Origin: Nitrosopumilus sp.
GTDB taxonomy: Archaea; Thermoproteota; Nitrososphaeria; Nitrososphaerales; Nitrosopumilaceae
Direction of reading: 5' to 3'
Assembly: GCA_965224195.1 (NCBI GenBank)
Contig: OZ245040.1
Location: 960,001 to 1,024,000, forward strand
Length of the DNA stretch: 64,000 nucleotides
In this document: positions 28,005-59,406 of the stretch, in pieces
Position numbering within the stretch: the stretch's first letter is position 1
Layout of the letters: each line of letters opens with the position of its first letter
Notes under the pieces: generated by a model
Databases searched by the model: none
Told to the model about the DNA's origin: nothing
Seen by the model: the letters and a program-made list of their open reading frames with translations, nothing else
Position numbers and translations under genes: made by a program

Positions 28005-29354
28005 CTAAATGGTGTTTACTGTGATGTTTTCTGCCTTTAGTGATGGAGTAATTGATGGAAGGGATGCCCATTGAATGACATTTTTTGATTATTTCCAATG
28101 GCTGAAATATTTTTCAACATGTTTGGAAGGCTGTGAATTATTCTAACTGATTTCCCTGGCCCTACGATTTCTCCATTCTCAATAATCCTAATTCCACTTC
28201 TTGCAGTACATGAAAAATCTCCTCTGATTGGATTTACTGCATATGTATACCATAATCTTCCTACAAGCAAACCGTGTTTTGTTTCTTTTATTATTTCTTC
28301 TTGGGAAAAATCACCTGAAATTATTTTCAAATTATGGGGAGATGATATTGGAATTGATTCAGAACCTCTTCCCATGGGGGATCCGGGACGTGATGCATTA
28401 CCTGTAGATTCTTTCCCTTCTTTGTAACTATCAAATAAATTTGAAAACGTATTTTTGAAAATACCTTTTTCGATTAGATTTTGTTTCTTTGTCTTGACTC
28501 CTTCGTCGTCTATTGATTTTGTTCCAAGCCCTTCTGGAATATGTGGGTCATCAATTAAATTAAATTCTTCAACTGCAATTTCTTTTTTATAACTATTTGA
28601 AAAACAACTTTTTTTTCTGAAAATGTTTTAAAATTAAAATTGGATGCTACAACAAAAGCCAATAATTCTCCTACTGAGTATGGTTCAAAAATTATAGAAT
28701 ATACATCTGAATTAATTTTTTGTGGATTTATTGATTCTATACACATTGTTTTTGCATCTTTGCCTATTTGCTCTGGAGAAAAATTTGACAATGTTCTACC
28801 ACATGCATGTCCAATTCCTGACACTGGTGTTTCTCCATGCTCTGATTCCGCATTAATAATTCCTGAAATGTATGTGGCTTTATCTGAAAAATCAAGTCCG
28901 TTAGAATTCATCAATTCAAATTTTTCAGATACTATGTGAAGAGATCCTGTAATTGTATTTACTTTATCATTATTTGCTGAATCAATCATACTTTGTGCGA
29001 TATCTGTGCATTCAGAGCCTGAAATGCATTCTAATTTTTCATCAAATGTCCCTTCTAATTGAATGTGGTCTGATTTGTATGGCAATCCTCCCCAAAATTC
29101 CCTCGATTTGATGATGCTCTCAAAGCTTTCAGCATTGTTTGTTCAATTTCTTTTTCATTTGTTGTTTGCATTGATGCAATTTTTTTATCATGAATTAATC
29201 TAATCCCAAAACTTTGATCAAAATTCTGTTTAATTTCAACAATCTCTGAATCTGTAAATCTAACTGTGATGATTTTTTTCTTTACTAATGTAACATCGCA
29301 TTCATCTATCTTTAATTTTTTTGCATTACTTAGTACCTTTTCTAAGGCGTACAA
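28005..29354 (-). pseudogene. TldD/PmbA-family protein (PmbA/TldE-like), three frameshifts
   Basis: Fragments in different frames: FGIRLIHDKK; IIFEPYSVGEL; DDPH..DDEG; NPIRGDFS. Breaks near 29105, 28610 (A8 run) and 28085 (A6 run). Confidence 0.85.
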
Positions 29355-42924: not shown

Positions 42925-45374
42925 TTTCTTTTTTTAAAAAATATTACAATTCCTACTATTGCAATTATTGATATTGCCCAAACCCAATACGATGATTCAT
43001 TTTTGGCAAATTCAATATTTTCATATGTGGTTACTGGCAATTCACTTTTGCTATTTGTAACAATGAAACTTGATTCATAAAAGTCTGGTTTTAATACTGA
43101 GTTTGAAATTGCAAATATTTTGATATTGTTTGCGCCTGTACCTAGTTTATTTGAGGTCTCTGGAGTGATTGTGATGACTGTTTTACCATCTTTTGTGTCT
43201 ATTGTATTTGAAATTATTTTCTCCCCTTGACTATTTGTTAAAAAATACAGTATTGAATCTGAATTTTTGGTTTCAATATTTAGCGTGATTTCTTCTCCTT
43301 TTTGTATTAGTTTTTCTATGTCTATTTTTTCAATTGATGGAAACTGTGTTTCTTCAAATCTTGACCATTCACCTTTTTTGAATGGATATGAATCATCATC
43401 AAATGCCATTACTTTGATTGTTCTTGATTCTGGTGAATATGATTCTAGATAAAATGGACCATTACTTATCACCGCATGTTCTTTAGCCTGAATCCAATTA
43501 ATTGAAGAATCATATCTATTTTTATAATATTCTATACTTTGATTATTTTCTTTTACTGCTTCTGGAATGTAATTAGTTTCTTTAAATTCTTGTAAATAAT
43601 TTTTGATGATGATTGCGTCATTTGGTATGATTAGTGATAACCAATTAACACTTTTACTTACTGCTCCTGATCTTGAAAATGAAACTTTTCCATCCATTAC
43701 TGCTTTCTCCATTGCAGCTGTAATTTCCCACGGTACTGGTGTTGCTATGTCTGCCCAATCTGCAATCTCTCCTTCATCATAATGCCAATAGTCTACATAC
43801 ACTTCAACGGTGTTTTCATCTATTACATTTATTCCTCTAATTGTCTGAATACTTTGTGCTGCTCTGGGGGTAAATTCAGTATCAAAAGTTTTATCATTTT
43901 CATCTACTTGGGTTCCCCACTCTATGGTGAAATATAATGCATGTAAAATATCGTTAATATCCATTTTTTGCCCATTATGCCAATTACTAAGTTTCCAATC
44001 AAATGTTACTTTACTAGTTGCCAATGCATTGGACCCTACATTTTCCCATTGCTGTGATGTTGGATTCCAAATTTTTGCTTCTTGAGGTATACTTAATTTA
44101 TCATTTGGACCTGCTGTTTCAACTTGCCAGTCTGCTCTAATTGGGATTGTTTCTCCTGTAAATGGATGTTTGAATGTGGCCGGATCTGAAATTATTCCCC
44201 AAATCTGTACACTATAACTATCAGTCATACCCATTACTGGATTCCATGCTCCTTGATAGATTTGTTTGACTCCTATTGCTAATTCTTCATGATCACTTTT
44301 AGCATTAATTGGTGTGAATCTACTTGGTACTCCTGCTCCAAAATCATTTACTATTCCATTGATTTTCTCATTTACTACATACTGATCAATTTTATTTGCT
44401 AAAAAAATTCTTACTGATTCATTAATTCCTTCTACTACTGCTTCTTGAATTAATTTTGCTCTTTGTTCTGCCGTTTCAAAATCACTTGTGTATATTTTCT
44501 GAGTAATCGTATCTAATTTTTCATTTTTATAATTCCAATACGTTGGATCATTAAATCCTGGCATGTTTGAAAACCAAGGAGAATACATATGTCCCAATCC
44601 TGTGGAATCATATTTTACAAATGCTGAACGTTGCCATGCTTCTGTGTATAGATTCCATTTCACATCTGATGGATTTGACCCATAGACTATTACAAATGCT
44701 TTATTCAAATCCCCAAAATCTTTTTTTACTGTAAATCCTATTTTTTCTAATTCAACGGCTAATATTTCTCCTATTGATTTTCTTATGGGATCATCACTTC
44801 TGATAAAAATTGTAATTTCTATTGGTTTACTGTTAATCTGCCATTTTCCTTCTTTTTTGATTGCCCCTTTCTCTGTCAATGCTTTAGACATGATTTCTTT
44901 TGCTAATGTTGGATTGTATTTGAAATTGAACATCTCTAACTGTTCAATTATTGTCAGAAATTCTGGACTTGAAGTACCATAATATGAAATACTTGGGGCT
45001 CCGTATCCTCCCATTAACTCGTTTACTATCAAATTTCTGTCTACTAAATAATTTAAAGCAAATCTGGTCTCTTTATCTGAAAAAGGATTGAATTTTTCTG
45101 ATTCGGCAGGATTTACTAGAATGCTATAAAATCTACTTGTTGCATCAAAAACTTGTAATTCTTCTTTGCCTTGATTATTTTCTAATCTATCTGCTGAGAC
45201 TGTATCATAGTATATGTCTAGATTCCCATTTCTGACTTCTTCTAATGCTGTATTTTCATCTAAATATTGAATGAATTTTACTGAATCAAAAAATGTATTT
45301 TTTTCTGCAAATGATTCATTGTGTATTATTGATGCTATTGAAAGAGCTAGTATGATAACTAGCATAATTTTCAT
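42909..45374 (-). CDS. ABC transporter substrate-binding protein (family 5, peptide type), membrane-anchored
   Basis: NPFSDKETRFALNYLVDR, WHNGQ..DINDI and ISNGPFYL; signal peptide and C-terminal TM. Confidence 0.88.
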   Translation of the reverse strand: MKIMLVIILALSIASIIHNESFAEKNTFFDSVKFIQYLDENTALEEVRNGNLDIYYDTVSADRLENNQGKEELQVFDATSRFYSILVNPAESEKFNPFSDKETRFALNYLVDRNLIVNELMGGYGAPSISYYGTSSPEFLTIIEQLEMFNFKYNPTLAKEIMSKALTEKGAIKKEGKWQINSKPIEITIFIRSDDPIRKSIGEILAVELEKIGFTVKKDFGDLNKAFVIVYGSNPSDVKWNLYTEAWQRSAFVKYDSTGLGHMYSPWFSNMPGFNDPTYWNYKNEKLDTITQKIYTSDFETAEQRAKLIQEAVVEGINESVRIFLANKIDQYVVNEKINGIVNDFGAGVPSRFTPINAKSDHEELAIGVKQIYQGAWNPVMGMTDSYSVQIWGIISDPATFKHPFTGETIPIRADWQVETAGPNDKLSIPQEAKIWNPTSQQWENVGSNALATSKVTFDWKLSNWHNGQKMDINDILHALYFTIEWGTQVDENDKTFDTEFTPRAAQSIQTIRGINVIDENTVEVYVDYWHYDEGEIADWADIATPVPWEITAAMEKAVMDGKVSFSRSGAVSKSVNWLSLIIPNDAIIIKNYLQEFKETNYIPEAVKENNQSIEYYKNRYDSSINWIQAKEHAVISNGPFYLESYSPESRTIKVMAFDDDSYPFKKGEWSRFEETQFPSIEKIDIEKLIQKGEEITLNIETKNSDSILYFLTNSQGEKIISNTIDTKDGKTVITITPETSNKLGTGANNIKIFAISNSVLKPDFYESSFIVTNSKSELPVTTYENIEFAKNESSYWVWAISIIAIVGIVIFFKKRNQSKP

Positions 45375-45455
45375 GTTGATACTTTCAAAACCATGTACTA
45401 AAACCTATATCACAATACCCTGATATTATTAGTTGCTAAAACCTATATTTCTATA

Positions 45456-46109
45456 ATGAATCAAAAACTACAATTGAAACTCCATCCTAAAATGAAAATC
45501 GGATTACAAGGAATAATCCCTGGAGGTATGTCTGTACAAGATTTTTCTGCTGTCACAAAAATAAATTCTTCTGATTCTAAAATAATTTTAGATGAATTTG
45601 TTAAAAATGATATTGGAAAAAAACAAGATAATTCATATTATTTTGAAGAGGGGGATAAATTAAAAATTGCAGTAATGTTATTGGAAAAAGGTTTTCCAAT
45701 TGATGAAATTTCTGTTGCTTTGGATTGGAGGAATTTTGAAGGGCTAACTGCTGAAATATTATCTGAAAAGAATTTTGCAGTAATAAAAAATATGATGCTA
45801 ACAAAACCTAGAATGGAAATTGATGTGGTGGGTATTAGACTTGGTGTTGCAATTTTGATTGATTGTAAACATTGGAAACGTAACAGCCCATCTGCCTTAT
45901 CCACTGTGGTAAAAAAACAAATTGCTAGGACAAAACACTATGTTGAAAAAACTCCTGGAGCGTTGGCTGTGCCTGTAATTGTAACTTTGTATCAGGATAA
46001 AATCGATTTTATTGAGAATGTACCAATAGTTCCAATTTTTCAGTTTGCTTCATTTGTTGATGAATTTTATGGAAATATTGATCAAATGAAGACTATAGGA
46101 ACAGACTAG
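45456..46109 (+). CDS. PD-(D/E)XK restriction-endonuclease-like (Mrr-like) protein
   Basis: WRNFEGL..EIDVVG...IDCKHW. Confidence 0.75.
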   Translation: MNQKLQLKLHPKMKIGLQGIIPGGMSVQDFSAVTKINSSDSKIILDEFVKNDIGKKQDNSYYFEEGDKLKIAVMLLEKGFPIDEISVALDWRNFEGLTAEILSEKNFAVIKNMMLTKPRMEIDVVGIRLGVAILIDCKHWKRNSPSALSTVVKKQIARTKHYVEKTPGALAVPVIVTLYQDKIDFIENVPIVPIFQFASFVDEFYGNIDQMKTIGTD

Positions 46110-47841
46110 ATATAAATAATATCATACATCCAATCACAAACCCTTTGGTAATTTTTAATGAATTATCTAATGCTTTGGAATAATCTTCATAAATTCCCTG
46201 ACCCATTACTTTTACGTTTGATTCATTTTCTAAAATCTCAAATTTTGCTGCTGCGGTATTATTTTCTGCACTTTTTGCAATTTCAAAAAACCATTTTGCT
46301 AGTTTATCTGCACTTGTAATTAATCCTAATTGATAGTATCCATTTCTGTTCCTTGGTTTAACTGGTGCATAATGCGTATCTGATGTACAAATTTCAAGTA
46401 GTTGATAATCTCTTTTTGCAAAAATATCTATAATTTTCTCTCTGACTCCATTTTCCATATTGTTGGAATCTGCCCATCCTAAGAAATATTTTTTCTCATT
46501 AATTTTAAGACAAATAATTCCTAACCCTCCCATTCCCAAGTCTTCTGTCCATACATCCATTTCATCCGTATTGGCATAGCCAAACTCTATTGGGAAATTC
46601 TCTTTTGTAATTAGAGTATCCAAACATGATTTAGCAGCTTTTAGCATATCTTCTCCATCTTCTTTTGAAATTTCCTCACCCATTGCATTATGGGTATCCA
46701 CAATCAGGGTTCTTGTATAATTTCTATTATTTGCATACTGGACTATTTCTGTTTTCATGTAACTAGGAAGATCTTCCATACCTTGTGGTGATAATGATAA
46801 AAACAATAGTGGATTATTTCCAAAAAGTAAACCTGTCACTCTAGCTTTGTTTATTTGAACTGTTACTGGCTCTGTACATTGTATGCCCTCTTCTTTGACT
46901 TTACTATTCTCCAAATCCTTCAAAAATTTTTCAACTTCATTTCTTGATGGAAGATTCAATGCATGATCTGAAATACTGTGCATGACCATTGCTGATGATG
47001 ATAAATTTTTGTAAATTAGGTAGGGGATATTGCTTCCTCCTACGGGGTGATATGGTCCTGGATGTATCCCTGGTAATACCATTCTGAATTCTTTTTGGCC
47101 GTTTTGTGTTGAAAATTTTATTTGTGATGTGTCTATTTTGGTTTCACTTGAGCGTTCTTCCATCAGCATTTCGGCATCTTCAAAATCATTCCCTTGTGAT
47201 GCAAGATATGCTTGGATTGTTTTATGGGTGCTCTCCATTCCTGGTCTTCCTGCTCTATCTGTTACAAATGACCATACACTTGCAATAATAATAAAAGATA
47301 TCCCGTATCCTAATCCCACTGGCTCACTAAGTATCGAAATCCATAAATCTTGTGGAACTAATACCAAAAACATTGCTAGTGGTTGAATGAGACAAATGGC
47401 CCAAGCTTTTTTTAGACTTGCACCGAGAGTTGTAGTGTAAATCCCTATTCTAAAACCTGTAAAAAGTAATAATCCAAATGTGATGAAGAATAGTTCTAAA
47501 TCTTTTGATAAAACTATGCTTGAAAGTATTCCCATCAAAAGTGTAACAGTCCATAACATATTTCCAAAAAAAGATGAATGCAATGATTTTGAATATTCTC
47601 TCTTTTTTGCAAATCGTGAATCTAATAATTGTGTTAAAGATAATACTCCTAAAACAATTGGTAATCTGTACCAGTTTTCTTCAAACCCTAAATTTCCCAA
47701 ATATCCAAAATATGTAGCAAAAACTGTAACTGATGCTACTACCATTGAAACTACTAGTGAGAAATATTTTGATGATGGATTAACTAGAGTAAGGGAAAAT
47801 CTATTGTGTATATTTGAAACATCATCTATTTCTTGTTCCAT
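46093..47841 (-). CDS. DUF2070-family membrane protein
   Basis: N-terminal TMs; HPGPY..GGSN, DTHN, DSNNM and TSDTH. Confidence 0.85.
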   Translation of the reverse strand: MEQEIDDVSNIHNRFSLTLVNPSSKYFSLVVSMVVASVTVFATYFGYLGNLGFEENWYRLPIVLGVLSLTQLLDSRFAKKREYSKSLHSSFFGNMLWTVTLLMGILSSIVLSKDLELFFITFGLLLFTGFRIGIYTTTLGASLKKAWAICLIQPLAMFLVLVPQDLWISILSEPVGLGYGISFIIIASVWSFVTDRAGRPGMESTHKTIQAYLASQGNDFEDAEMLMEERSSETKIDTSQIKFSTQNGQKEFRMVLPGIHPGPYHPVGGSNIPYLIYKNLSSSAMVMHSISDHALNLPSRNEVEKFLKDLENSKVKEEGIQCTEPVTVQINKARVTGLLFGNNPLLFLSLSPQGMEDLPSYMKTEIVQYANNRNYTRTLIVDTHNAMGEEISKEDGEDMLKAAKSCLDTLITKENFPIEFGYANTDEMDVWTEDLGMGGLGIICLKINEKKYFLGWADSNNMENGVREKIIDIFAKRDYQLLEICTSDTHYAPVKPRNRNGYYQLGLITSADKLAKWFFEIAKSAENNTAAAKFEILENESNVKVMGQGIYEDYSKALDNSLKITKGFVIGCMILFISSLFL

Positions 47842-47848
47842 TGTTCCT

Positions 47849-48013
47849 TCACGGAGAGAAAAATAAATCGATTATCCATGAAACGGCGATTAAACTAATT
47901 GGGATTGATACTACAATTTTTGGATCTAATTTGAATCCCTTTGTCTCATCTTCAAAGAATCTCATGAGACCTCCACTTGATGCTGGGAGTGGTGCTGATT
48001 TCTTATCTGCCAT
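47849..48013 (-). CDS. secG: Preprotein translocase subunit Sec61-beta/SecG (not in ORF track)
   Basis: MADKKSAPLPASSGGLMRFFEDETKGFKLDPKIVV + TM helix. Confidence 0.9.
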   Translation of the reverse strand: MADKKSAPLPASSGGLMRFFEDETKGFKLDPKIVVSIPISLIAVSWIIDLFFSP

Positions 48014-48048
48014 TACAATTCGTCATCACGGATTTTAACATAAAAACT

Positions 48049-48378
48049 TTATTGTTTTCCTTTCATTTTATCGATTATTTCTAACAACGTATTGATTGTT
48101 TTTAGGATGTTTTGTTGTTTTTCATGATCTTTTTCCTGTTCTAGTTCTTTTGATAGATTCTCCAATTTTTTCTCAAATGTTTTTTCTATTGATGATGACT
48201 CATTTGGTTGATTTTCACTAGGTATTTCTTTTTTTTCTGGTTGTCTACCACAGCTAATGCATAATGCTTGTCCTTCTTTCATCACTCTAACCCCTGCACA
48301 GTATGGACAAGGTTCACTAAGTAATGTGGCTCCTTGAAGAAGCATTTCCGCTGCTTTTTTTGTAAGCTTTTCTGTCAC
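48049..48378 (-). CDS. UPF0148/autoantigen p27-family zinc-ribbon protein
   Basis: LLQGATLLSEPCPYC...CISC. Confidence 0.85.
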   Translation of the reverse strand: MTEKLTKKAAEMLLQGATLLSEPCPYCAGVRVMKEGQALCISCGRQPEKKEIPSENQPNESSSIEKTFEKKLENLSKELEQEKDHEKQQNILKTINTLLEIIDKMKGKQ

Positions 48379-48482
48379 TGTTTTTCTTTAATTTTCTATC
48401 TAAAAAATCCGTTTATTTTTTATTTTTTCATAATATTCAAACAAGGCTTAATAGTGTGAATAATTGAATTTATTTCGAACGA

Positions 48483-48791
48483 ATGGCAGTAATTTGTAAT
48501 ACTTGTGGTCTTCCAGAAGATTTGTGCGCATGTGGTGAACTTGCCAAAGATAGTACTAAAATCATTATTAGATTGGAAACTAGGCGTTTTAAGAAAAAGG
48601 GTACTATGATTGAAGGATTGGATCCTAAAATAAATAATCTAGAAGTTGTGGCAAAAGATCTTAAAAATAAATATGCATGTGGAGGAACTGCAAAAGAGGG
48701 TTACATATTCTTACAAGGAGATCATAGAGATACAATCAAAGACACTTTGATTCATTTAGGATTTGCAGAAGACACAATAGAATTACATTAG
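48483..48791 (+). CDS. sui1: Translation initiation factor SUI1 (aIF1)
   Basis: CGLPEDLCAC and LKNKYACGGTAKEG.I.LQGDHR. Confidence 0.93.
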   Translation: MAVICNTCGLPEDLCACGELAKDSTKIIIRLETRRFKKKGTMIEGLDPKINNLEVVAKDLKNKYACGGTAKEGYIFLQGDHRDTIKDTLIHLGFAEDTIELH

Positions 48792-48792
48792 A

Positions 48793-49788
48793 GTGCAATT
48801 GCAAAATTCAAATAAAATACTTCAGTTAATTGGAATTCCATTTAGCGCATCACTTTCAGTAGTTTTTGGTTTACTTTTGGTTTCATTCCCAATTGGAATT
48901 CATATAGTTTTTGAAACTGATGTTGGAGGTGATATTAATTTTGAATATCCTTTAACTCACTTGGATATTTTTGATGGCACCGATTTTTACAAATCTCCTC
49001 TTGATGTTAGTATAGGTGATGCATTTGTTGTGCTATGGATATTCTATCTTGTTCTTTTTGTAATTGCTATTCTTGGACCTCGTAATGATTTTTTAAAAAC
49101 ACTTTCACTCATTATCTCTTTTGGGAAATACAATACACGCGTAAATTATATGATTGGAATAACTAAATGGTTTTCAATTTTAATTTTAATCTCAACTCTG
49201 ATAAATTATGTTCAAAAAGAAATTGGCCTTGAAATTGTCCCCCCTCTGGCTGAAAATGATTTAATTCAATTTTTTTATGTAAGCTTGGCTCCTATTCTTG
49301 AAGAATTTGGGTTTCGTCTTATTTTAATTGGCATTCCGTTGTTTGCTCTTTATTCTACAAAACCTTTTTTGAAATATTTTGTTAAATGTTTGTGGAGTCC
49401 TGCCAATTTGGATATCTATGATGCAAAAAAAGCATTTCTTTTAGTAGTTTTTGTAGGTGTTCTTTTTGGATTTGCACACATAGCATTTGGTGATTCTTGG
49501 AGTACTGGAAAGTTTGCCCAAGCTGCCGCAAGTGGAATAATTTTAGGTTGGGTGTATCTTCGATACGGTTTTGTTGTTTCTCTTTTGATTCATTGGGCTA
49601 CTAATTACTTTGTTTTTTCATATGCCAATTTTATTTCCCAGATAAATACAATTTCTATTGAAGATGCATTTTCACATTCTTTAATGTCTACTTTAGAAAT
49701 TTTACTGCTTGTTACGGGTATTTTCTCAATTAGTATTTTGTTTGTAAATAGATTTTGTTCTAAAAAAAATACTACCTTAGAGGTCTAG
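48793..49788 (+). CDS. CPBP-family intramembrane glutamic protease
   Basis: APILEEFGFR, LFGFAH and IHWATN. Confidence 0.88.
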   Translation: MQLQNSNKILQLIGIPFSASLSVVFGLLLVSFPIGIHIVFETDVGGDINFEYPLTHLDIFDGTDFYKSPLDVSIGDAFVVLWIFYLVLFVIAILGPRNDFLKTLSLIISFGKYNTRVNYMIGITKWFSILILISTLINYVQKEIGLEIVPPLAENDLIQFFYVSLAPILEEFGFRLILIGIPLFALYSTKPFLKYFVKCLWSPANLDIYDAKKAFLLVVFVGVLFGFAHIAFGDSWSTGKFAQAAASGIILGWVYLRYGFVVSLLIHWATNYFVFSYANFISQINTISIEDAFSHSLMSTLEILLLVTGIFSISILFVNRFCSKKNTTLEV

Positions 49789-50685
49789 TGCTACTTTCAA
49801 TCCTTTGTATCTATTTCTAATTGTTACTTCTGTAACTCCTGCAGCTTCTGCAACATCTCTTTGAGTTTTATTTTCACCATTTGTAACACATGCTACATAA
49901 AGTGCAGCTGCTGCTAACCCCATTGGATCTTTACCTGCTGATATTTTCTGTTCTTCAGCCGTTTGTAGAATTTTTGTTGCTTTTCTTTTTGTTTTTTCTG
50001 ATAACCCTGCTTTACTTGCAATTCTTGAAATGCATTTTACAGGATCAACTACTGGCATTTTCAAATTTAATTCTCTAAGTAATAATCTATAACATCTTGC
50101 AATATCTTTACGTTTAATGTTGCTTGCTTGACCAATATCTTTTAGAGTCCTTGGTGTTTCAGTATCCCTACATGCTGCATAGAGTGCAGATGCAATTAAT
50201 GCTGATATCGAACGTCCTCTTACTAGTCCTTTTTCTAAAGCTTTTCTGTAAATATAAGCTGCTTTCTCAACAACTGAATCTCCTATTACCAGTTTATCCT
50301 TTAATCTGTCTAATTCGCTAAACGCCTGTCTGAAGTTTCTGTCAACTGGTTCATGGACTTGACTTCTACTGTCCCATGTTCTTAATCTTTCAATAGTGCT
50401 TTTCATTGCTGCAGTTAATGGTTTGCCCGTTGCATCCCTGTTTTGGGGATTGATTACTGTGGCTAGCCCCATATCGTGCATTGCAAGTGATGTTGGAACT
50501 CCAGTTCTACTTTTGTTTTCACCCTCGTTTGAAAATGACCTCCATTCAGGACCTGATTCTTCTACTTTATCTGTAATAACAAATCCACATTTACCGCAAA
50601 AATTCTCGCCTGTATTGGCGTCTGTAACTATAGATCCCTTTCCACATCTGGGGCATTTGTCTTTTGGATTAGTTGTTTTAACCAT
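49777..50685 (-). CDS. tfb: Transcription initiation factor IIB
   Basis: CPRC..CGKC zinc ribbon, GPEWRSF, RGRSI, GKDPMGLAAAALY and VTEVTIRNRY. Confidence 0.96.
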   Translation of the reverse strand: MVKTTNPKDKCPRCGKGSIVTDANTGENFCGKCGFVITDKVEESGPEWRSFSNEGENKSRTGVPTSLAMHDMGLATVINPQNRDATGKPLTAAMKSTIERLRTWDSRSQVHEPVDRNFRQAFSELDRLKDKLVIGDSVVEKAAYIYRKALEKGLVRGRSISALIASALYAACRDTETPRTLKDIGQASNIKRKDIARCYRLLLRELNLKMPVVDPVKCISRIASKAGLSEKTKRKATKILQTAEEQKISAGKDPMGLAAAALYVACVTNGENKTQRDVAEAAGVTEVTIRNRYKGLKVALDL

Positions 50686-50838
50686 TTTCTCTCTCAAAAC
50701 CTTTTATCATGATATTTAAGATTTACTAATTCATTGCTTATAAGTATATCTGTGGTTGGCTTTGTAACATCGTCGGTTGAGATCTTCTCCTTGTCTCATT
50801 TCGGTTGGTTTTTGCCAAAATATAGAATTTAATTTTAT

Positions 50839-51609
50839 TTAATCTTGAATCGAATCATGCTTTTCAGAATTTTGTAGTATGATGTCTAATTCCTTTACTG
50901 AGGAGATTAACCAATTAATACAATATCTCATTACTTTTGTGACTTCTTCATCTGCATACTTTTTCAGAAATGAATTAAGTAAAACACGGTAGTTAGTTTT
51001 AATGAAAACAGTAATTATGAAATCTTGGAGATAAGGTGTTTCCAGATATGTTATTGCATTGAATATTTTCCCTGATTGATCTAATTTGAGATAAATTTGA
51101 TTTTTTAAAGGGGATGAAAAAGTAGAACTAGAATTTATCATATTTCTTATTCTTGTATCCATTTCGTCAAAATCATTTTTAATTCCCTTTGCTTCTGCAT
51201 CCAAATCCATTTTTGTTTTATCTTGTCTTGAAACACGCGATTTATCTGCTAAAAATCTACACCATCCAAATCCATATTGTAAATACCAATTAAGGTTTCT
51301 CAAATACTCAAAAACATCGTGGTATTCATTCATTATTGATTTATTTCTTTTATTATTTTGAATTAGAGTGGTAATTAAACTTGAAAGTAATACGGTTGAG
51401 ATTGTAAATGTACCTATAAACAAATTAAAGTCTTTTTGTTCATTAGGGTAGTTGAAAACAATATAGTTAAGAATTATAGTAAAAATTATCAGAGAAATTA
51501 TATAGAGAAATGCTAAAAACCCATTTTTCCATAATGTGTGATTGTATTTTTTATGATAGATTAATTTTGTAATTTCACTCAGATTTCTAAAAGGCATGTT
51601 GGTTATCAA
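50839..51609 (-). CDS. Orphan membrane protein (2 N-terminal TMs + helical domain)
   Basis: 256-aa very AT-rich ORF. Confidence 0.6.
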   Translation of the reverse strand: MITNMPFRNLSEITKLIYHKKYNHTLWKNGFLAFLYIISLIIFTIILNYIVFNYPNEQKDFNLFIGTFTISTVLLSSLITTLIQNNKRNKSIMNEYHDVFEYLRNLNWYLQYGFGWCRFLADKSRVSRQDKTKMDLDAEAKGIKNDFDEMDTRIRNMINSSSTFSSPLKNQIYLKLDQSGKIFNAITYLETPYLQDFIITVFIKTNYRVLLNSFLKKYADEEVTKVMRYCINWLISSVKELDIILQNSEKHDSIQD

Positions 51610-51765
51610 ATTAATAATTATTTAAGATTACATTCAATATTTACTGAATGCAAACCAGATCCTTATCTTCCATGTTTTTTGTCTAAAATCAGAATCGTTG
51701 AGAGTTTTTTGTAATATTTGATAACATAATACCCTTCTCTTTTCAATCTCAAAATACAAGTCAAT

Positions 51766-52047
51766 TTGATGACATTTATCAAATGTCTTGATTGCGGAGA
51801 AATACTAGAAAGCACATCTTTACATGATTTTGTGAAATGTTCGTGCCCAAATCCACTGTTTTTGGATGGGGGAGATGACTATTGCGGATATGGGGGCAAA
51901 GAAAAAGATCGACTTCAGATAATTGATTCTACAACAATTCACTCGTTTATCGTAGATAATTATCCTACATATGATGGGGATATTGATGATAGGTCCATAT
52001 GTGAGGTACTGGATGAAATTCATAGAAAATTAAAAAAATATGTGTGA
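51766..52047 (+). CDS. Phage-type small zinc-binding protein
   Basis: IKCLDCGEILES..HDFVKCSC...LDGG.DY pattern, which I associate with phage/MGE hypotheticals. Confidence 0.65.
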   Translation: MMTFIKCLDCGEILESTSLHDFVKCSCPNPLFLDGGDDYCGYGGKEKDRLQIIDSTTIHSFIVDNYPTYDGDIDDRSICEVLDEIHRKLKKYV

Positions 52048-52085
52048 ATTTATGAAGTTGCATTGATTTATCCTTGTTTAAAATT

Positions 52086-52454
52086 TTAATTATTTAATGG
52101 TGGATTAAGAATTGCTCTGACATAGTCTTCAAAAACTAACCTTTGTTGATCATCTACCATTCTTCTGTATTGAATTCTATATTTTAATGCATTTTGAGGA
52201 TAACTTGGATGGTGTTGAATTTTATTTTTTAGCGTAGAGTTACCATTACCGTTTATGTGTTGACTCATTCTTTCTGGAATGTTTCCTGATTCACCTACGT
52301 AAATTATTTCTCCTGTGTCTGGTCTGCTGAGAATGTATACTCCTGCAAACTGTTCTCTACCTGTCATTGTTTTCACTGTGATTGCAGCAGCTCCTAATAG
52401 TCGCTGCAATGCAATTTTGTGTTCTTTAATTCTACTACTATATTCTCTTTTCAA
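52086..52454 (-). CDS. GIY-YIG nuclease-family protein
   Basis: GVYIL...IYVGESGNIPERMSQH, E..V and LNPPLN. Confidence 0.8.
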   Translation of the reverse strand: MKREYSSRIKEHKIALQRLLGAAAITVKTMTGREQFAGVYILSRPDTGEIIYVGESGNIPERMSQHINGNGNSTLKNKIQHHPSYPQNALKYRIQYRRMVDDQQRLVFEDYVRAILNPPLNN

Positions 52455-52671
52455 AAAAACCGTATATAACTTTTCAAAGTCAGACTAGCCTCAATTTACC
52501 CCTCGACAGTTATCCGTATTAACTGTCACCAGTCAAGTCAGCAGAACCGAAAATGGTTCAGTTATAAAAAGCCCCGACACGCAACACGAATAAGATTATG
52601 GTTCAAGCTCCGCTAATGCAACAGAATCCAAAAATAGGAACTATTATTTACTGTAAAAATTAGAGTCTGAT

Positions 52672-55600
52672 GTGAACTGCCCTTATTTTTTTATCCTTGG
52701 TATAATTACATTGGCTCTAGTCGGCGGAGTCTCATCTGTGGGGGGGGGGTGGCATATGCTGACAATGCTGCTGATGCTGCCGGCGACATTCTAGTTGCAG
52801 ACTCGGGCAACCACCGCATCCAGGTGTTCAATCCTGACCATTCCTTCAAGTTTCAGTTTGGCAGCTCAGGCTCTGGTGACGGCCAGTTTAATACGCCCTG
52901 GAGCACGGCAATAGCACAAAACGGCGACATACTGGTAGTAGATCAGGGCAACCACCGCGTCCAGATATTCAACTCTGATGGCACATACAAGGCAAAGATT
53001 GGCAGCAGCACTTCTGGTGCTGCAGGCAGTAGTAGTGCCAACGGCGAGTTTGACAGCCCCCGAGGCATAACTATAACATCAGGCGGCGACATTCTAGTTG
53101 CAGACACGGGCAACAACCGCATCCAGGTGTTCAATCCTGACTATTCCTACAAGTCCAAGTTTGGCAGTCTGGGCAGCGGCAACGGCCAGCTCAACACTCC
53201 TTATGCTATAACGGTAGCAGCACCAAGCGGCGACATTCTAGTTGCAGACTCGGGCAACCACCGCATCCATATTTTTGACTCTAGCTATGCCTACAAGGCA
53301 AAGTTTGATAATAAAGTATCACAGTTTTTATCCGCACAAGGAGCCCATGCCATAGCAGTAGGGGCTAATGGCGATATCCTCGTTAATACGGGCTATGGTA
53401 GTATCGCTGTTTATGACTCTGCCACCTACGCCATAAAATCACTCCTTTCTAGTAACGCCGGCCAGGCCAGTAGCGGCATACTAGGCATAGCTGTCGCTCC
53501 AAACGGCGACATTCTCTTTACAGATACAGGAAGACATCACGTACAGGTATTCGGCTCTGACTATGTCTACAAGGCAGTTTTTGGCAGCTCAGGCTCTGGT
53601 GACGGCCAGTTTAACACCCCTTACGGCATAACAGTCGCCACTGCTGACAATACCCCGCCAAAATTTGATTCAGCAACACTAGATGAGGAAACCGGAGTTT
53701 TGGCAATAACTTTTAATGAGATAATTGCAAACGAGGGCTTGTCTACTGCCCCCTTTGATTTATCCAAACTGTTCATCAGTGAGACGGGAAGTGCCAGCGG
53801 CAGCAGCGGCGTTCAACTGAGCGGTGCCAGCATTGAAACTGTCGGCAACAGCACCTCCATAGAGATCAAGCTTACTGCACCTCAATTACAGTCAGTCATT
53901 GCATTGACTACTCCAGAACTGGACATCCTAGAAGCGGCAGTATTTGATGTTTCAGGTAATGAGATTCTCGCATCATATGACAATATCATTGCAGTAACTA
54001 ACAGTGTAGCACCAGTATCACCACCACTTGCTGCTCCAACTGGCCTTTCAGTGGCAGTATCTGGCACCACAGCTACCATCACTTGGACTGCACCTGCAAT
54101 ACCGGCCAATTCATTCTATGACATTAATTCCGTATCCTATATCGTGAATGTCACTGATACTGCTGCTGGCACCACCGTACCGTATACCGTACCTGCTGGC
54201 ACTACCGAGCATACGACGAACCTGATATTGGGCCAATTTTATGAGGTAACCGTAGAGGCAACAGCCTTGTTGTCAGATTCAACCGTTCTGTCCTCCCAAC
54301 CTACCGCAGCTGTATCCTTTGCTGTGTCTGAACCACCATCACTTGATGCGCCAACCAACCTTTCAGTGGCTGTATCTGGCACCACAGCTACTATTACTTG
54401 GACTGCACCTACAGTGGATACCAATGACTTCTATACCATTAATGATGTGAGTTATCAAGTGACTGTCGTTGATTCTGACGGTTCTGGTGCTGCATCAAGT
54501 GGTTCTATAACTGGCACCTCATATACGGCAACAGGCCTGACACCGGGTGAGTCATACAATGTATATGTAGTTGCATATGCTGTCGTTGGATCAAGCTATA
54601 CTGTGGAATCAGTTGAGGTATCTGCTTCCTTTAATATGCCAGCAGCAGCAGTAGTAGTAGTAGATAGCGGTGCAGGCACACCGCCATCACCAGATCAGAT
54701 TAAAGTACAAAATTTAGAGATAGAAAAAACAGGTAACAAAAGAGTCACTTTAACATGGAAAGCACCAGCAAATTCAGGTGATAAAGTATTAGATTATTAT
54801 AGTATCTCATACAATTGTCCTGCTACTCATGGTACAAAATATACTGAGATTCATACTGGCTTTACATCTGTGTCTATAGATAATTTGGATATAAGCGGCA
54901 TATGCAGGTTTCAAGTAACTCCAATATATCCTTCTGGTGGTGGTGTTAATAGTCTAATATTTCCTGGTGTTGATGGTGGTGTTACTGATAAAGGATTATC
55001 AGCTCCTCTAAAAGACATACCATTTACTGAAACACCAAAAGACATACGATTAACTGCTGCAATGGATGGCAGTGATGCAATCAAGGTGTCATGGCTTTCA
55101 ATATCCAGTGATATAGCTTTTTATGAACTGTCTTTGGGTGATGGTGATGACTCAAGAGGACTTGTGCCTTTAAAGGACTTTAAATATGAAGATGATAGGC
55201 CAACATCACAAATAATTAAAAACGTTGATCCTGGACGTACATATACTATTTACTTGGTTCTATACAATTATGAGGGCTCGGTACATTCTACTACTTTTAT
55301 TAAATATACAGTACCTGTTGACAGCATCCCGCCAAAATTAGAGTCAGCCGCACTGGATGAGGAAACAGGAGTCCTGACAATAACTTTTGATGAGATAATA
55401 GCAAACGAGGGCTTGTCTACTGCCCCCTTTGATTTATCCAAACTGTTCATCAGTGAGTCGGGAAGTGTTAATGGTACCGGCACGGCACTGAGCGGTGCCA
55501 GCATTGAAACTGTCGGCAACAGCACCTCCATAGAGATCAAGCTGACCGAATCCCAAAGACTGGCAGTCATTGCATTAACTGTCCCAGAACTGGACATCCT

Positions 55601-58001
55601 AGAAGCGGCAGTATTTGATGTTTCAGGCAATCAAATAGCTGCGGCACTAGACAATGCCATTGCAGTAACTAACAGTGTACAGCCGCCATCACTTGATGCG
55701 CCAACCAACCTTTTAGTCAATGTCATAAACGACACAGCCGCTGAAATTACCTGGACTGCACCTGCAATACCTGCCAATCCATTCTATGACATTAGTGACG
55801 TATCCTATCTCGTGAATGTTACTGATACTGCTGCTGGCACCACCGTACCGTATACCGTACCTGCTGGCACCACTACCACGCATACGGCAACAAACCTGAT
55901 ACCGGGCAAGTCCTATAATGCATCTGTAAAGGCAATAGTCTTGCTAGATTCAGGCGATGATTTGGAATCATCTGCCACAGCTGTATCCTTTGATATGCCG
56001 CCACCACTTGATGCGCCAACTAACATTTTAGTCAATGTCATAAACGGCACAGCCGCTGAAATCACTTGGACTGCACCTACAGTGGATGCCAATGAGTATT
56101 ATACCATTAATAATGTGAGTTATCAAGTAATTGTCCTTGATTCTATCAATGCTCCTACTGCATCAAGTGGTTCTATAACTGACACCTCATATACGGCAAC
56201 AGGCCTGACACCGGGTAAGTCATACAACGTATTTGTAGTTGCAGATGCCGCCGTTGGATTAACATATACTGTGCAATCATCTGCGGTATCTGCCCCCTTT
56301 GATATGCCTGCAGCAGATGCCCAAGCCGCAGCAGATGCCCAAGCCGCAGCAGATGCCCAAGCCGCAGCAGATGCCCAAGCCGCAGCAGATGCCCAAGCCG
56401 CGGCAGATGCCCAAGCCGCAGCAGATGCCCAAGCCGCAGCAGATGCCCAAGCCGCAGCAGATGCCCAAGCCGCAGCAGATGCCCAAGCCGCAGCAGATGC
56501 CCAAGCCGCAGCAGATGCCCAAGCCGCAGCAGATGCCCAAGCCGCAGCAGATGCCCAAGCCGCAGCAGATGCAGATGCCCAAGCCGCAGCAGATGCCCAA
56601 GCCGCGGCAGATGCTATAGATCCTGCACCAGTTGTTGTAACAGTAAATGCTGCAATGTATAACAGCACTGCAATCTTACTGACGTGGACCCAGCCGCCAT
56701 CATTAGAGGTAACTGGCTATGATTTATCATGGGTATCAGAGGATGCTAATGGTGACCCACATACTGGTGGTTACATATCACTTGACGGTGTAATAGGTGA
56801 TGTATTAGAATCCCACATATTTAATAAAGTTAATCCTGGAGAGACATACCACTTTACATTGGGTGTATTTTTCAATGTAGAAGGTCTTCCACAGCCTTTT
56901 GGCTCTTATGATGTGACATATACAGTACCAGATCCTAACGCAGATTCACTAAAAGATCACAAAAAGAAGAGGAGTACTGGCAGCTCAAATGAGCACTACA
57001 AAAAGCCAACCTTTGGACTGTCCCATCTGACAGAAAGTCTGATTGTAAATAATGGCATGTGCCTTAATGACAGCTGCGTTGACGTTGTATCATGGCACAC
57101 AAAATATCCGGAGGATAAAATATTAATAGACACCACAAACTATCTGCAGGCCAAAATGTACACTGATAAAACTTTGCGATATGTAGAGTTTTTCTTTGGA
57201 GTGCCAAGGCCTGGAGATGCATCTAATGCAGAGGTATTCGTAAAGGTAAGCCTGTCTAGAAACTATACCAGTCCAAATAACTATGATGTAACTGGCATCA
57301 GTACCATTGATGCAGAAGGTTTGCTGGATGGTACTGTAACTGCTGCAACCATACAGCCAAGCAAATGTCTTAGTGCAGATGCCGAACCAAACTGTCACAC
57401 TGTAACATTGCAGTTTGACTTCAACGAGGCGCCAATACACAGGGCATTTGCCATAGCGGCAGTTGACATGGACAGACGAGTCCATACAAATTACTTTAAT
57501 GACGGCTTTGTGGTACTTGGCGAATCACTAAATCCGGCAGACATGCACCATGTTGCAAACAGTGGCAAGTATCACTCTAATGAATATGCAAGTACGCACC
57601 AGCTGACACTGACCCAGACAGACAGGGCCAAGAACCTGTGGGCTGACCAGTGGGGATTTGCCTGGACACAAAATGACCATGGTACATGGCTCCAGCTGGA
57701 ACGAGATGAGTTTGTACGACACCAGGATGACATTAGCAGCGTAATGACCAGAACAAACTCTAACTATGACAGTATGATATCCCATGAGAAGGACCGCGCA
57801 TTGCAGCATGCAAAGGATATGTATGGCAGCATATATGACAAACCATCCTCTGATCTGGCAGAGCCTGTAACCATATGGATTGTGCCCTCACCAACAAGCA
57901 AGCTGCAAAACCCGGAGATACTTGATGCAATGAAACTGGAGGAAGCAAAGGCAATGAGCTATTTGCAGCATATGGTACGCGCAGACATGTCGCGCAAATG
58001 A
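52672..58001 (+). CDS. Large cell-surface protein: six NHL repeats, FN3/Ig-like domains, ADAQAA repeat and thaumarchaeal-type C-terminal domain; signal peptide out of frame at a G10 tract
   Basis: Main ORF 52749-58001; GDILVADSGNHRIQVF repeats; APTGLSV..TATITWTAP..YxV; upstream GTG 52672 gives MNCPYFFILGIITLALVGGVSSVGGG in another frame. Confidence 0.8.
52740..52749 (+). repeat. Poly-G tract (G10) between the signal-peptide core and the AYA cleavage site
   Basis: TCTGT-GGGGGGGGGG-TGGCATATGCT. Confidence 0.9.
53646..56310 (+). repeat. Intragenic module duplications (53646-54008 ~ 55320-55679; FN3 pair ~54020-54640 ~ 55683-56310)
   Basis: Near-identical DNA, e.g. GAGGGCTTGTCTACTGCCCCCTTTGATTTATCCAAACTGTTCATCAGTGAG occurs twice. 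Confidence 0.85.
56313..56615 (+). repeat. 18-bp tandem repeat GCAGATGCCCAAGCCGCA (ADAQAA), 16 full units plus partials
   Basis: 14 units, a 6-nt partial, 2 more units, then a partial; in frame. Confidence 0.95.
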
Positions 58002-58393: not shown

Positions 58394-59406
58394 AGATCCA
58401 AAGCTAAGGCTGAATTATTTTCAATTCATGTTTAATTGCACAAAACTGGCAAAAAAACCAAAGCAATTTCTGCCAATAGCAGGACTAACTGTTCCACAGT
58501 TTGATTCCCCATACAAGGAAACAAAGAAAAATTACAAAACTGCAGAACAAAAGGGACTGTCCAAAAACAGAGAAAGGGACATTGGTGCAGGACACAAGTT
58601 TGACTTGTCCTTCAAAGGCAGAATTCTAATGTTTTTCATGTACTACAGAATGTACACAGCATATGACATGCCAGGGATGACATTTGATTTGGACAAACCA
58701 AACGTAATGAGAAACATCGGATGTTTGGAGCCTGCAGTGAAGCAGTCCATTGTAATTGCTGCCAAAAAATATGCAGACTCAAAAGAGATTAACGGCATGC
58801 AGGAACTGCAGGAATTCTTTCCGGAATTAGTTGCAATCACTGATGGCACAGAACAGCCCATCCCAAGACCAAAAAACAAAAAGAAAAGAAAGGCACGCCA
58901 TTCAGGCAAAAAGAAAAAGCATGCAGTACAAAATCAAGTCGCCATAAATCCTGATGGGATAACAATCCACAAATCTGCACATTCGCCTGGCAGCCATCAT
59001 GATTACGGAATTTACAAACCAAGGCATCCAACATTGTCTGAAGAGCTGCTGCAGTCTTATGATCCTGGATGTTTGGGGATGGAAAAGGACTTTCCAGAAC
59101 AGGCAAGTGTTTTGCCATGCAAGAAAAAGAAAGGAAAAAAATTGACTGTTGCTCAAAAGGAGTGGAACAGGATGCAGTCAAAAATTAGAATAAAAGTTGG
59201 ACGTGTCATTGCACAAGTCAGGCAATTTCGGATAAATCGCGATGTGTTTAGAAACAAATTATGCAGATATGATGTGACAAGTGAAATTGTTTGTGGGACT
59301 GTCAGTTTCAAGATTAAATGGAAAGAAGAATTCATTGCAATTCCATAAAATTAAGAATTAAATGACAGAAAAGTTAGATTTTTGTTTGTAATTACGCAAC
59401 TCATCT
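58394..59406 (+). mobile_element. IS5-family (DDE_Tnp_4 type) insertion sequence, probably inactive; ends approximate
   Basis: Short inverted ends ATAAGAT (58391) and ATCTTAT (59403-59409), possible TA target duplication; single transposase ORF. Confidence 0.65.
58428..59348 (+). CDS. IS5-family transposase with degenerate catalytic motif
   Basis: DGTEQPIPRP, HSGKKKKH, PGSHHD and YDPGCLG; RIKVGRVI where RxxVE is expected. Confidence 0.85.
   Translation: MFNCTKLAKKPKQFLPIAGLTVPQFDSPYKETKKNYKTAEQKGLSKNRERDIGAGHKFDLSFKGRILMFFMYYRMYTAYDMPGMTFDLDKPNVMRNIGCLEPAVKQSIVIAAKKYADSKEINGMQELQEFFPELVAITDGTEQPIPRPKNKKKRKARHSGKKKKHAVQNQVAINPDGITIHKSAHSPGSHHDYGIYKPRHPTLSEELLQSYDPGCLGMEKDFPEQASVLPCKKKKGKKLTVAQKEWNRMQSKIRIKVGRVIAQVRQFRINRDVFRNKLCRYDVTSEIVCGTVSFKIKWKEEFIAIP

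Follow-up and report, generated by a model that had tools for sequence, protein, structure and literature searches.

Simple-sequence phase variation at multiple loci is seen as a hallmark of bacterial pathogens adapted to their hosts. In Neisseria gonorrhoeae and Neisseria meningitidis, pilC carries a poly-G run in its signal-peptide coding region, and the neisserial opa genes carry CTCTT repeats in theirs; in Bordetella, the C-stretch of fim2 and fim3 lies in the promoter and acts through the spacing of a sigma-70 promoter. Cj0031 and others are phase-variable Type IIG restriction-modification enzymes, and Campylobacter is not known to have MutSL mismatch repair. Here we describe a run of ten G residues (G10) that separates a predicted signal-peptide coding sequence from a 1,750-codon open reading frame (ORF) in Nitrosopumilus sp. 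(assembly GCA_965224195.1, contig OZ245040.1, positions 960,001 to 1,024,000); this 64,000-nt stretch was analysed as a whole and is called the window, and positions without a contig name refer to it. We consider it likely that the G10 tract is a slipped-strand contingency locus, currently OFF in the assembled state, and that it belongs to a 14-locus set. Because its genome encodes an archaeal AmoA, the organism is an ammonia-oxidising archaeon.

Campylobacter jejuni has a set of phase-variable genes with poly-G/C tracts (PMC8355987, PMC8437040). The sequence-only reading of the window knew of no comparable description for a thaumarchaeon, and a full-text literature search, with subscription journals and supplements outside its scope, likewise found no description of simple-sequence phase variation in Thaumarchaeota. 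In their accessible text, related reports say the following: Orsi et al. 2010 (PMC2831843) covered 18 archaeal genomes and found poly(A)/poly(T) tracts of up to 7 nt but do not report surface genes with long G/C tracts; two archaeal species are included within pooled statistics by Lin and Kussell 2012 (PMC3315296); a 2025 review (PMC11868660) describes multi-locus phase variation as apparently restricted to pathogens and calls for archaeal surveys; and a preprint (10.1101/2025.10.21.683753) states that contingency loci have been studied in archaea, citing a 1987 hybridisation study of simple repeats. The terms "phase varia," "homopolymer," "frameshift," and "poly-G" do not occur in the accessible text of two genomic studies of sponge Thaumarchaeota (PMC7848895, PMC6790972), the former of which reports that restriction-modification genes are enriched in these organisms. 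The mechanism proposed here is of a known kind; as far as we could find, it has not been described before as a multi-locus system in an archaeon, nor in a nitrifier.

Anatomy of the locus

Direct reading of the sequence places the G10 run at positions 52740 to 52749, with a T immediately before (52739) and after it (52750). The frame that opens at GTG 52672 encodes (M/V)-NCPYFFILGIITLALVGGVSSVGGGWHML..., runs for 40 codons, and ends at a TAG codon at 52792 to 52794; the long ORF (52749 to 58001, 1,750 aa), whose translation opens VAYADNAADAAGDILVADSGNHRIQVF..., lies in a different frame. By codon counting, the two frames are joined by one G more (G11) or two G fewer (G8) and not by G10. The joined product would read ...SSVGGGVAYA-DN with G11 or ...SSVGGVAYA-DN with G8, where the hyphen marks the end of a predicted cleavage-type A-x-A motif, (V)AYA-DN, before the mature protein. 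The tract occupies codons 23 to 26, within the part that encodes the predicted signal peptide; the hydrophobic core in this frame has an 11-residue Kyte-Doolittle mean that reaches 2.96 and is then followed by AYA-D, as in the paralogues described below. All of this (the position of the tract, the signal peptide starting at GTG 52672, the long ORF in another frame, and fusion by G11 or G8) had been put forward in the sequence-only reading and was confirmed in every detail. That reading had also noticed no other long G run, and G10 is indeed the sole G/C run longer than 6 nt in the 64-kb window, the next longest being a single C6. G/C homopolymers of about 8 nt or more in a 5' coding region or promoter are taken to be of slip-prone length, and G10 is among them; a change of one unit is enough to toggle the product, which is a 40-codon peptide with G10 and the signal peptide plus 1,750 aa with G11 (or, by loss of two, with G8).

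The features of the locus are the following.

52566 to 52626, + strand: upstream element common to other surface-protein genes (DNA search matches)
52645 to 52661, + strand: 17-nt A/T-rich block TATTTACTGTAAAAATT, 11 to 27 nt 5' of the start codon, candidate archaeal promoter (paralogue alignment)
52672 to 52739, + strand: GTG start codon and n- and h-regions of the predicted signal peptide, MNCPYFFILGIITLALVGGVSSV (ORF, paralogues, hydrophobicity)
52740 to 52749, + strand: G10 homopolymer, proposed slipped-strand switch (11-nt insertion relative to a paralogue without a tract)
52792 to 52794, + strand: TAG codon that closes the signal-peptide frame in the G10 state (ORF list)
52750 to 58001, + strand, stop codon at 57999 to 58001: mature-protein frame with the (V)AYA-DN motif, NHL, fn3, repeat linker, and C-terminal domain
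56310 to 56614, + strand: in-frame tandem repeat, 18 nt in 16.6 copies, (AAADAQ)n (94% match)

The tract as an insertion among paralogues

The window's own genome (G000) consists of contig C1 (2.06 Mb) and contig C2 (7.4 kb) and has a GC content of 33.6%. A BLAST search of this genome with the 5' region of the gene returned a paralogue match at C1:799757, with 90 to 92% identity, gaps included. The gene at this place, C1:799816, is an intact ORF of more than 2,228 aa in a single frame; it opens MFDVNCPYFFILGIITLALVGGVSSVAYADNADAAGDILVADSGNHRIQVF, has no tract, and is near-identical to the window gene in its promoter region, signal peptide, and first NHL repeat. Because this paralogue reads both parts in one frame, the signal peptide belongs to the long ORF and, judged from the alignment, the signal-peptide frame and the 1,750-codon frame are one gene. 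Compared with the paralogue, the window gene has an 11-nt insertion, which is the tract, between ...TCATCT and GTGGCATATGC; a 12-nt insertion (that is, G11, adding Gly-Gly-Gly-Val) would keep the frame, and 11 nt is one base short of it.

In a further paralogue, C1:1399814, the counterpart of GTG 52672 in the alignment is the ATG start codon, and the columns of the 17-nt block at 52645 to 52661 are invariant in 4/4 of the paralogous 5' regions aligned, from which we infer that the block is the promoter (TATA/BRE region). A sigma-70 promoter scan around the locus found nothing, its model being bacterial and inapplicable to archaea, and a search for RNA families and terminators around the locus found none. 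The sequence-only reading had pointed to paralogues elsewhere in the genome as the place to look for more poly-G tracts, and there they are: C1:1399814 has a G10 of its own, about 12 codons further downstream than that of the window, and the genome as a whole has 13 tracts besides the window's. Two of the four genes that have the common promoter and signal cassette bear a G10, and the different positions of these tracts suggest that tracts have arisen repeatedly.

The upstream element, of about 60 nt, recurs outside this locus. In a DNA search of the genus, query positions 7 to 67 matched genome G017 at five places with 85 to 91% identity (loci L005, L012, L016, L019, and L022); the element was also matched in G009, G015, and G081 (more weakly) and at G000 C1:1545959-1546036, and a block related to it lies 5' of the paralogues in the alignment. 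The element may serve the surface-protein families as a common cassette for regulation or recombination.

Fourteen G/C tracts in the genome

The lengths of G/C runs in G000 have a bimodal distribution: runs of 6, 7, 8, and 9 nt number 48, 17, 4, and 0, whereas those of 10, 11, 12, 13, and 14 nt number 3, 4, 4, 2, and 1 (14 in total). From order-0 composition, 0.062 runs of at least 10 nt are expected in the 2.06-Mb contig, and the G10 of the window is therefore far beyond chance; an order-5 Markov model, trained on the genome with the tracts included, predicts 0 to 2 long runs. Each of the 14 tracts was oriented with G on top and read in three frames. In every case G lies on the sense strand of the adjacent gene (14/14), and all 14 tracts are at genes for giant secreted proteins or at one restriction-modification methylase, so that both marks of contingency loci, over-representation and concentration at surface and defence genes, are found in this genome. 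Pfam assigns fn3, NHL, and propeller domains to the tract-associated giants. Five tracts are intragenic (in four surface-type genes and the methylase), and the other nine lie 9 to about 110 nt 5' of the start codons of genes whose ORFs measure from 857 to over 1,973 aa and open with signal peptides. The tracts, with one shorter paralogous run, are the following.

Window tract: G10, intragenic, out of frame
C1:170249: G13, out of frame, where the signal meets the mature part of a 655-aa fn3 protein
C1:113407: paralogue of 170249, G8 (not among the 14), out of frame
C1:1399814: G10, intragenic, out of frame, with no more than 194 aa of open frame behind the tract
C1:1673851: G11, in frame, at about codon 113 of a 2,886-aa protein
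C1:1501840: G11, out of frame, splits the methylase
C1:529829 and C1:1056970: upstream tracts, 12 to 13 nt before the start codon
C1:1718514: upstream tract, 36 nt before the start codon
C1:1619091: upstream tract, 9 nt before the start codon
C1:3336, 666773, 1423668, 1611514, and 1732857: five-member family, tract about 110 nt before the start codon

With the G8 included, one of the six intragenic tracts is in frame and five are out of frame (G10, G13, G8, G10, and G11), the latter needing +1, -1, +1, -1, and +1, respectively, to restore the frame. The members of the five-member family have another variable simple repeat immediately after the tract, which is (TG/CG)n in two of them and (AG)n in three; such stretches lie at C1 666785-666810, 1611490-1611513, 1423640-1423667, and 3320-3335.

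The methylase locus (C1:1500241-1503359, L078) is divided exactly at the G11 into an ORF of 518 aa and a stop-to-stop frame of 552 aa, of which 533 codons follow the tract. In Pfam, positions 4 to 76 of the N6_Mtase profile match before the tract, and positions 76 to 266, together with positions 1 to 171 of Eco57I, match after it; by this division of the profiles, both halves are one Eco57I/MmeI-type N6 methylase, a Type IIG-like restriction-modification enzyme. The two frames would be joined by G12 or G9. The split methylase is a candidate for a phase-variable switch in defence or epigenetics. A search of 80 genus genomes found no close orthologue; homologues with 33 to 44% identity are present in 3 of the 80, and in G064 and G007 each is one uninterrupted frame of 1,111 to 1,128 aa.

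Mismatch repair and replication polarity

MutS_V and MutL (DNA_mis_repair) were not found in the genome, which is 99.85% complete on marker genes; the controls of this search matched 11 of 14 reference genomes. Two ORFs have a NucS_C domain. NucS/EndoMS acts on base mismatches and is not known to act on insertion loops.

The tracts of G000 form two chromosomal arcs: from 0.53 to 1.06 Mb the + strand has poly-G, and from 1.40 Mb across position 1 to 0.17 Mb it has poly-C. The boundaries of the arcs coincide with the maximum (155 kb) and minimum (1,365 kb) of the cumulative AT skew, and Cdc6/Orc1 is encoded at 195 kb; no clear origin emerged from GC skew, but AT skew and Cdc6 did indicate one. 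The two-arc polarity holds for 14/14 tracts in G000, 23/23 in G017, and 13/13 in G009 (random-label p = 0.011, 6e-5, and 0.019, respectively), and long ORFs overall have a mild strand bias only. If the origin is at Cdc6, G would always be on the nascent leading strand and the genes would be co-directional with the fork; the polarity could then reflect either the mechanics of slippage or selection against giant genes being transcribed head-on to the fork.

The switch that we propose would work as follows. The tract adds Gly codons in the c-region of the signal just before AYA-D, and in the G10 state the mature part is out of frame (OFF); G11 or G8 restores the frame of the full secreted protein (ON). 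The polymerase would slip on the G run during replication and, with no MutS/MutL found that would remove a one-base loop, cells would gain or lose a G at high frequency, making the population a mix of ON and OFF cells. Acting together, the 14 tracts would vary both the cell surface and DNA defence in many combinations, which would presumably be useful against hosts or viruses.

Poly-G tracts in related genomes

The G10 pattern was present in 16 of the 41 genomes of a first draw. Among 16 genomes from other families of the order, 14 are without it and two have one match per strand; of the 81 genus genomes, 38 are without a match and 43 have one or more, with 10 or more in 17 of them, a tract of length L giving L-9 matches. 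Many of these 17 tract-rich genomes are 1.9 to 2.6 Mb in size. One of the 17, G062, reaches 285 matches to the G10 pattern, but some come from runs at the ends of contigs and from a single run of about 42 G. Such runs probably arose in sequencing, and counts of the pattern in draft assemblies therefore call for caution.

Forty tract regions were retrieved from G017, G018, G007, and G009. G017 has 23 tracts, several of them in the N-terminal coding part of a giant NHL/propeller family, whose members are in frame at L042, L048, L049, L036, and L041 and out of frame at L046 and L047. Others in the same genome are at two N6_N4 DNA methylases, a phage-type integrase, and a sulfotransferase, and one lies about 150 nt 5' of a GmrSD restriction endonuclease. 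The tracts of G007 and G009 are at DUF285/Ig-like and fn3 giants. G018 (11 tracts) was set aside as an example, as its tracts have GC-rich flanks and no clear gene link. By analogy of gene function, the tract targets in these relatives match the functional spectrum of bacterial phase-variable gene sets. We give slightly better than even chances to the broader proposal that a subset of the genus, mostly with genomes of 1.9 to 2.6 Mb, runs a "phasome" of 13 to 23 poly-G loci that stochastically switch giant surface proteins, DNA methylases, restriction enzymes, and a sulfotransferase.

Tract-length differences between copies and read evidence

Tracts of different length are found within near-identical surroundings, which speaks indirectly for an unstable tract length. 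The tracts at C1:666773 and 1611514 have identical flanks as printed (120 nt upstream and 90 nt downstream) and are G12 and G10; those at C1:113407 and 170249 are G8 and G13 with one mismatch over flanks of the same extent; and a third paralogue pair is G12 and G12. In G017, L046 is G12 (out of frame) and L048 is G11 (in frame), with identical flanks of 70 nt upstream and 46 nt downstream.

Reads or contigs of the sequencing runs X2 to X5 were aligned over positions 44000 to 56300 of the window. Contigs of X2 (depth of about 400) match positions 44000 to 52610, and those of X3 (depth of about 100) match positions 44000 to 52477, each with 0 differences and 0 gaps. This stretch of 8.5 to 8.6 kb holds 14 homopolymers of at least 7 nt and, because the contigs match exactly across all of them, the assembly rests on accurate reads. 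The contig graph fragments at the tract itself; one X2 contig, with a depth of 245.8, spans 52748 to 52772 with no indel listed. The difference between this depth and the 372 to 427 of flanking single-copy contigs was rejected as evidence, as contig depth is not a read count, and an 11-nt omission at 52738 with a 3-nt omission at 52766 was rejected as a deletion allele, as it corresponds to the paralogue at C1:799757. X4, from another study (0.49 of words), has a contig of depth 34.2 with paralogue-type substitutions and two 3-nt omissions (52748 and 52772); because both omissions are multiples of 3, this contig comes from a strain or paralogue in the same OFF phase. The records of the runs that contain the window name organisms, not metagenomes, and the study of the best runs includes a 93-Gb Hi-C library, which suggests that this microbe lives with a eukaryote. 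A further run, X1 (marine sediment, share 0.05), was left aside and does not count as evidence of habitat.

Alternative explanations

Several observations weigh against a switch at this locus. A population mixture of lengths at the tract was not seen among the indels listed, which come mostly from contigs and are confounded by paralogues, and the raw reads of X5 (Hi-C, 2% of the run), 6 to 8 deep, contained no length variant in at least 3 reads. An orthologue of the gene's 5' end was absent from the 80 other genus genomes in the DNA search and from database proteins in a search with the first 200 aa, and a search of metagenome contigs for the flank followed by G6 gave 0 matches, records near this genome possibly having been left out. 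Five of the six intragenic tracts are out of frame, above the 2/3 expected at random, an excess that could be erosion, and the tract gene at 1399814, with its 194 aa open after the tract, may be decaying. In the window itself, a TldD/PmbA gene (28037 to 29354, - strand) has three frameshifts relative to its 466-aa orthologue in G003, to which it is otherwise 64 to 85% identical; two of the breaks are losses in A runs (A9 to A8 at about 28609 and A7 to A6 at about 28085), and the third, at about 29106, is outside any long homopolymer. Because the reads behind the assembly are accurate, we read this gene as a real and probably recent pseudogene; its two single-base A-run losses mean that plain homopolymer decay does occur in this genome.

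Three other explanations of the G10 draw on these observations to different degrees. If the G10 were an assembly or consensus error, the true tract would be G11 (or G8), and the gene would be intact and constitutive, the tract being merely a Gly run; long G runs are the hardest homopolymers on all platforms, the sequence-only reading had noted other single-base homopolymer losses in the window and had itself warned of sequencing error, and two of the three TldD/PmbA frameshifts are losses of this kind. That caveat is a real one, but it is weakened by the identity of the X2 and X3 contigs across 14 homopolymers, by the X2 contig that crosses 52748 to 52772 without an indel, and by the completeness of the genome on marker genes. 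A uniform homopolymer miscall also fails as an explanation, because the out-of-frame tracts of G000 deviate by both -1 and +1, and even a true G11 would stay prone to slippage; we regard an error as very unlikely. A plain pseudogene, in which one base was lost from a run without any role in switching as part of general decay, would be in keeping with the thrice-broken TldD/PmbA gene, the transposase gene directly downstream of the adhesin gene (see below), the out-of-frame state of most intragenic tracts, the tract gene that ends after 194 aa, and the X4 contig, a related sequence with the same frame relation. We still consider it unlikely: a chance G10 is not expected in DNA of 34% GC, the 1,750-codon frame after the tract is fully open, and decay would not put 14 sense-strand G tracts at the 5' ends of one functional class, a class that bears tracts in other species as well. 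It also counts against a pseudogene that the tract must have been built up, since the insertion is absent from the paralogue.

Slippage could act on RNA or at the ribosome instead, in which case the DNA would stay G10 and a fixed in-frame fraction would give a low constitutive level of protein with no heritable switch. In insect endosymbionts, genes with frameshifts are rescued when transcription slips on long homopolymers, and several bacterial genes make use of such slippage; the same out-of-frame phase in the assembly and in the X4 contig would fit a maintained design. A fixed design, however, does not predict tracts that are in frame in some paralogues and relatives and out of frame in others, and frame is irrelevant to the nine tracts 5' of start codons; we hold this explanation to be distinctly improbable, although RNA-level slippage could coexist with slippage of the DNA. 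The contingency locus thus remains our preferred reading of the G10. As stated in the sequence-only reading, this claim stands in part: the anatomy of the locus fits it, and the intact paralogue without a tract, the set of 14 tracts, the length differences between paralogues, the tracts of relatives, and the failure to find MutS/MutL speak strongly for it, but a mixture of lengths was not observed.

The encoded protein and neighbouring features

Pfam places fn3 (4.9e-48, five stretches) and NHL (2.5e-40, five stretches) on the long ORF, whose product would thus have extracellular domains of a binding type; the protein may have a role in adhesion. The closest database proteins to the first 200 aa are generic NHL propellers with at most 50% identity. 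The last approximately 350 residues have no family match in Pfam, and an atlas search with the C-terminal part gave scores of at most 0.84, which is chance level. No C-terminal membrane anchor is visible in the translation of the long ORF, unlike three sister giants, which end in a hydrophobic stretch followed by KKK. The (AAADAQ)n repeat at 56310 to 56614 is possibly a second, in-frame length-variable element; a similar repeat region is contained in a sister gene, C1:666865-672372.

Directly 5' of the adhesin gene lies an ORF with a GIY-YIG domain (52086 to 52454, - strand), and directly 3' of it lies a DDE_Tnp_4 transposase gene (58428 to 59348, + strand). Contig C2 (7,434 bases, 31.2% GC) has no similarity to C1 and was on this ground ruled out as a variant copy of a C1 region; it could be a small extrachromosomal element.

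Implications and comparison with known systems

If the proposed phasome exists, Archaea would have their first described system of simple-sequence phase variation at multiple loci, with a chemolithoautotroph, not a pathogen, as its bearer, and the switched methylases and restriction enzymes could act as archaeal phasevarions. If the tracts switch, bet-hedging in ammonia-oxidising archaea would extend to the cell surface and to restriction-modification, and the mechanism would operate with an archaeal replisome and archaeal promoters. Annotation calls such genes N-terminally truncated proteins or pseudogenes and so hides the main surface repertoire. The idea would be directly testable from tract lengths in existing reads.

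Among the described systems, pilC is like the window locus in that a gene for surface display or adhesion has a G homopolymer where its signal peptide is encoded, so that a change of one base uncouples the export signal; it differs in that pilC belongs to a bacterium with a bacterial replisome, whereas here the host is an archaeon, the protein is an unrelated NHL/FN3 giant, and switching is proposed from sequence. The opa genes share with the present genes the organisation of a multigene surface family with conserved 5' cassettes and independent switching by a repeat in the leader peptide, but there the repeat is a pentamer and the products are small outer-membrane proteins. For the nine sister tracts 5' of start codons, fim2 and fim3 offer a model; the effect there is on sigma-70 spacing, whereas the promoters here are archaeal TATA/BRE promoters, on which an effect of tract length is hypothetical. 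Cj0031 resembles the sister locus at C1:1500241-1503359, with its Eco57I/MmeI-type N6 methylase split by G11, and not the adhesin locus. The set of C. jejuni has the following in common with the present one: a low-GC genome whose over-long G/C tracts, about two dozen in number, lie within genes as well as between them and have targets concentrated in surface-structure and restriction-modification genes, and no known MutSL, as MutS/MutL were not found here. The targets in C. jejuni are mostly glycan-modifying enzymes and flagellar and capsule genes, whereas here they are mostly giant secreted repeat proteins, and in this ammonia oxidiser, which is not a gut pathogen, every tract has its G residues on the sense strand and the tracts occupy two chromosomal arcs.

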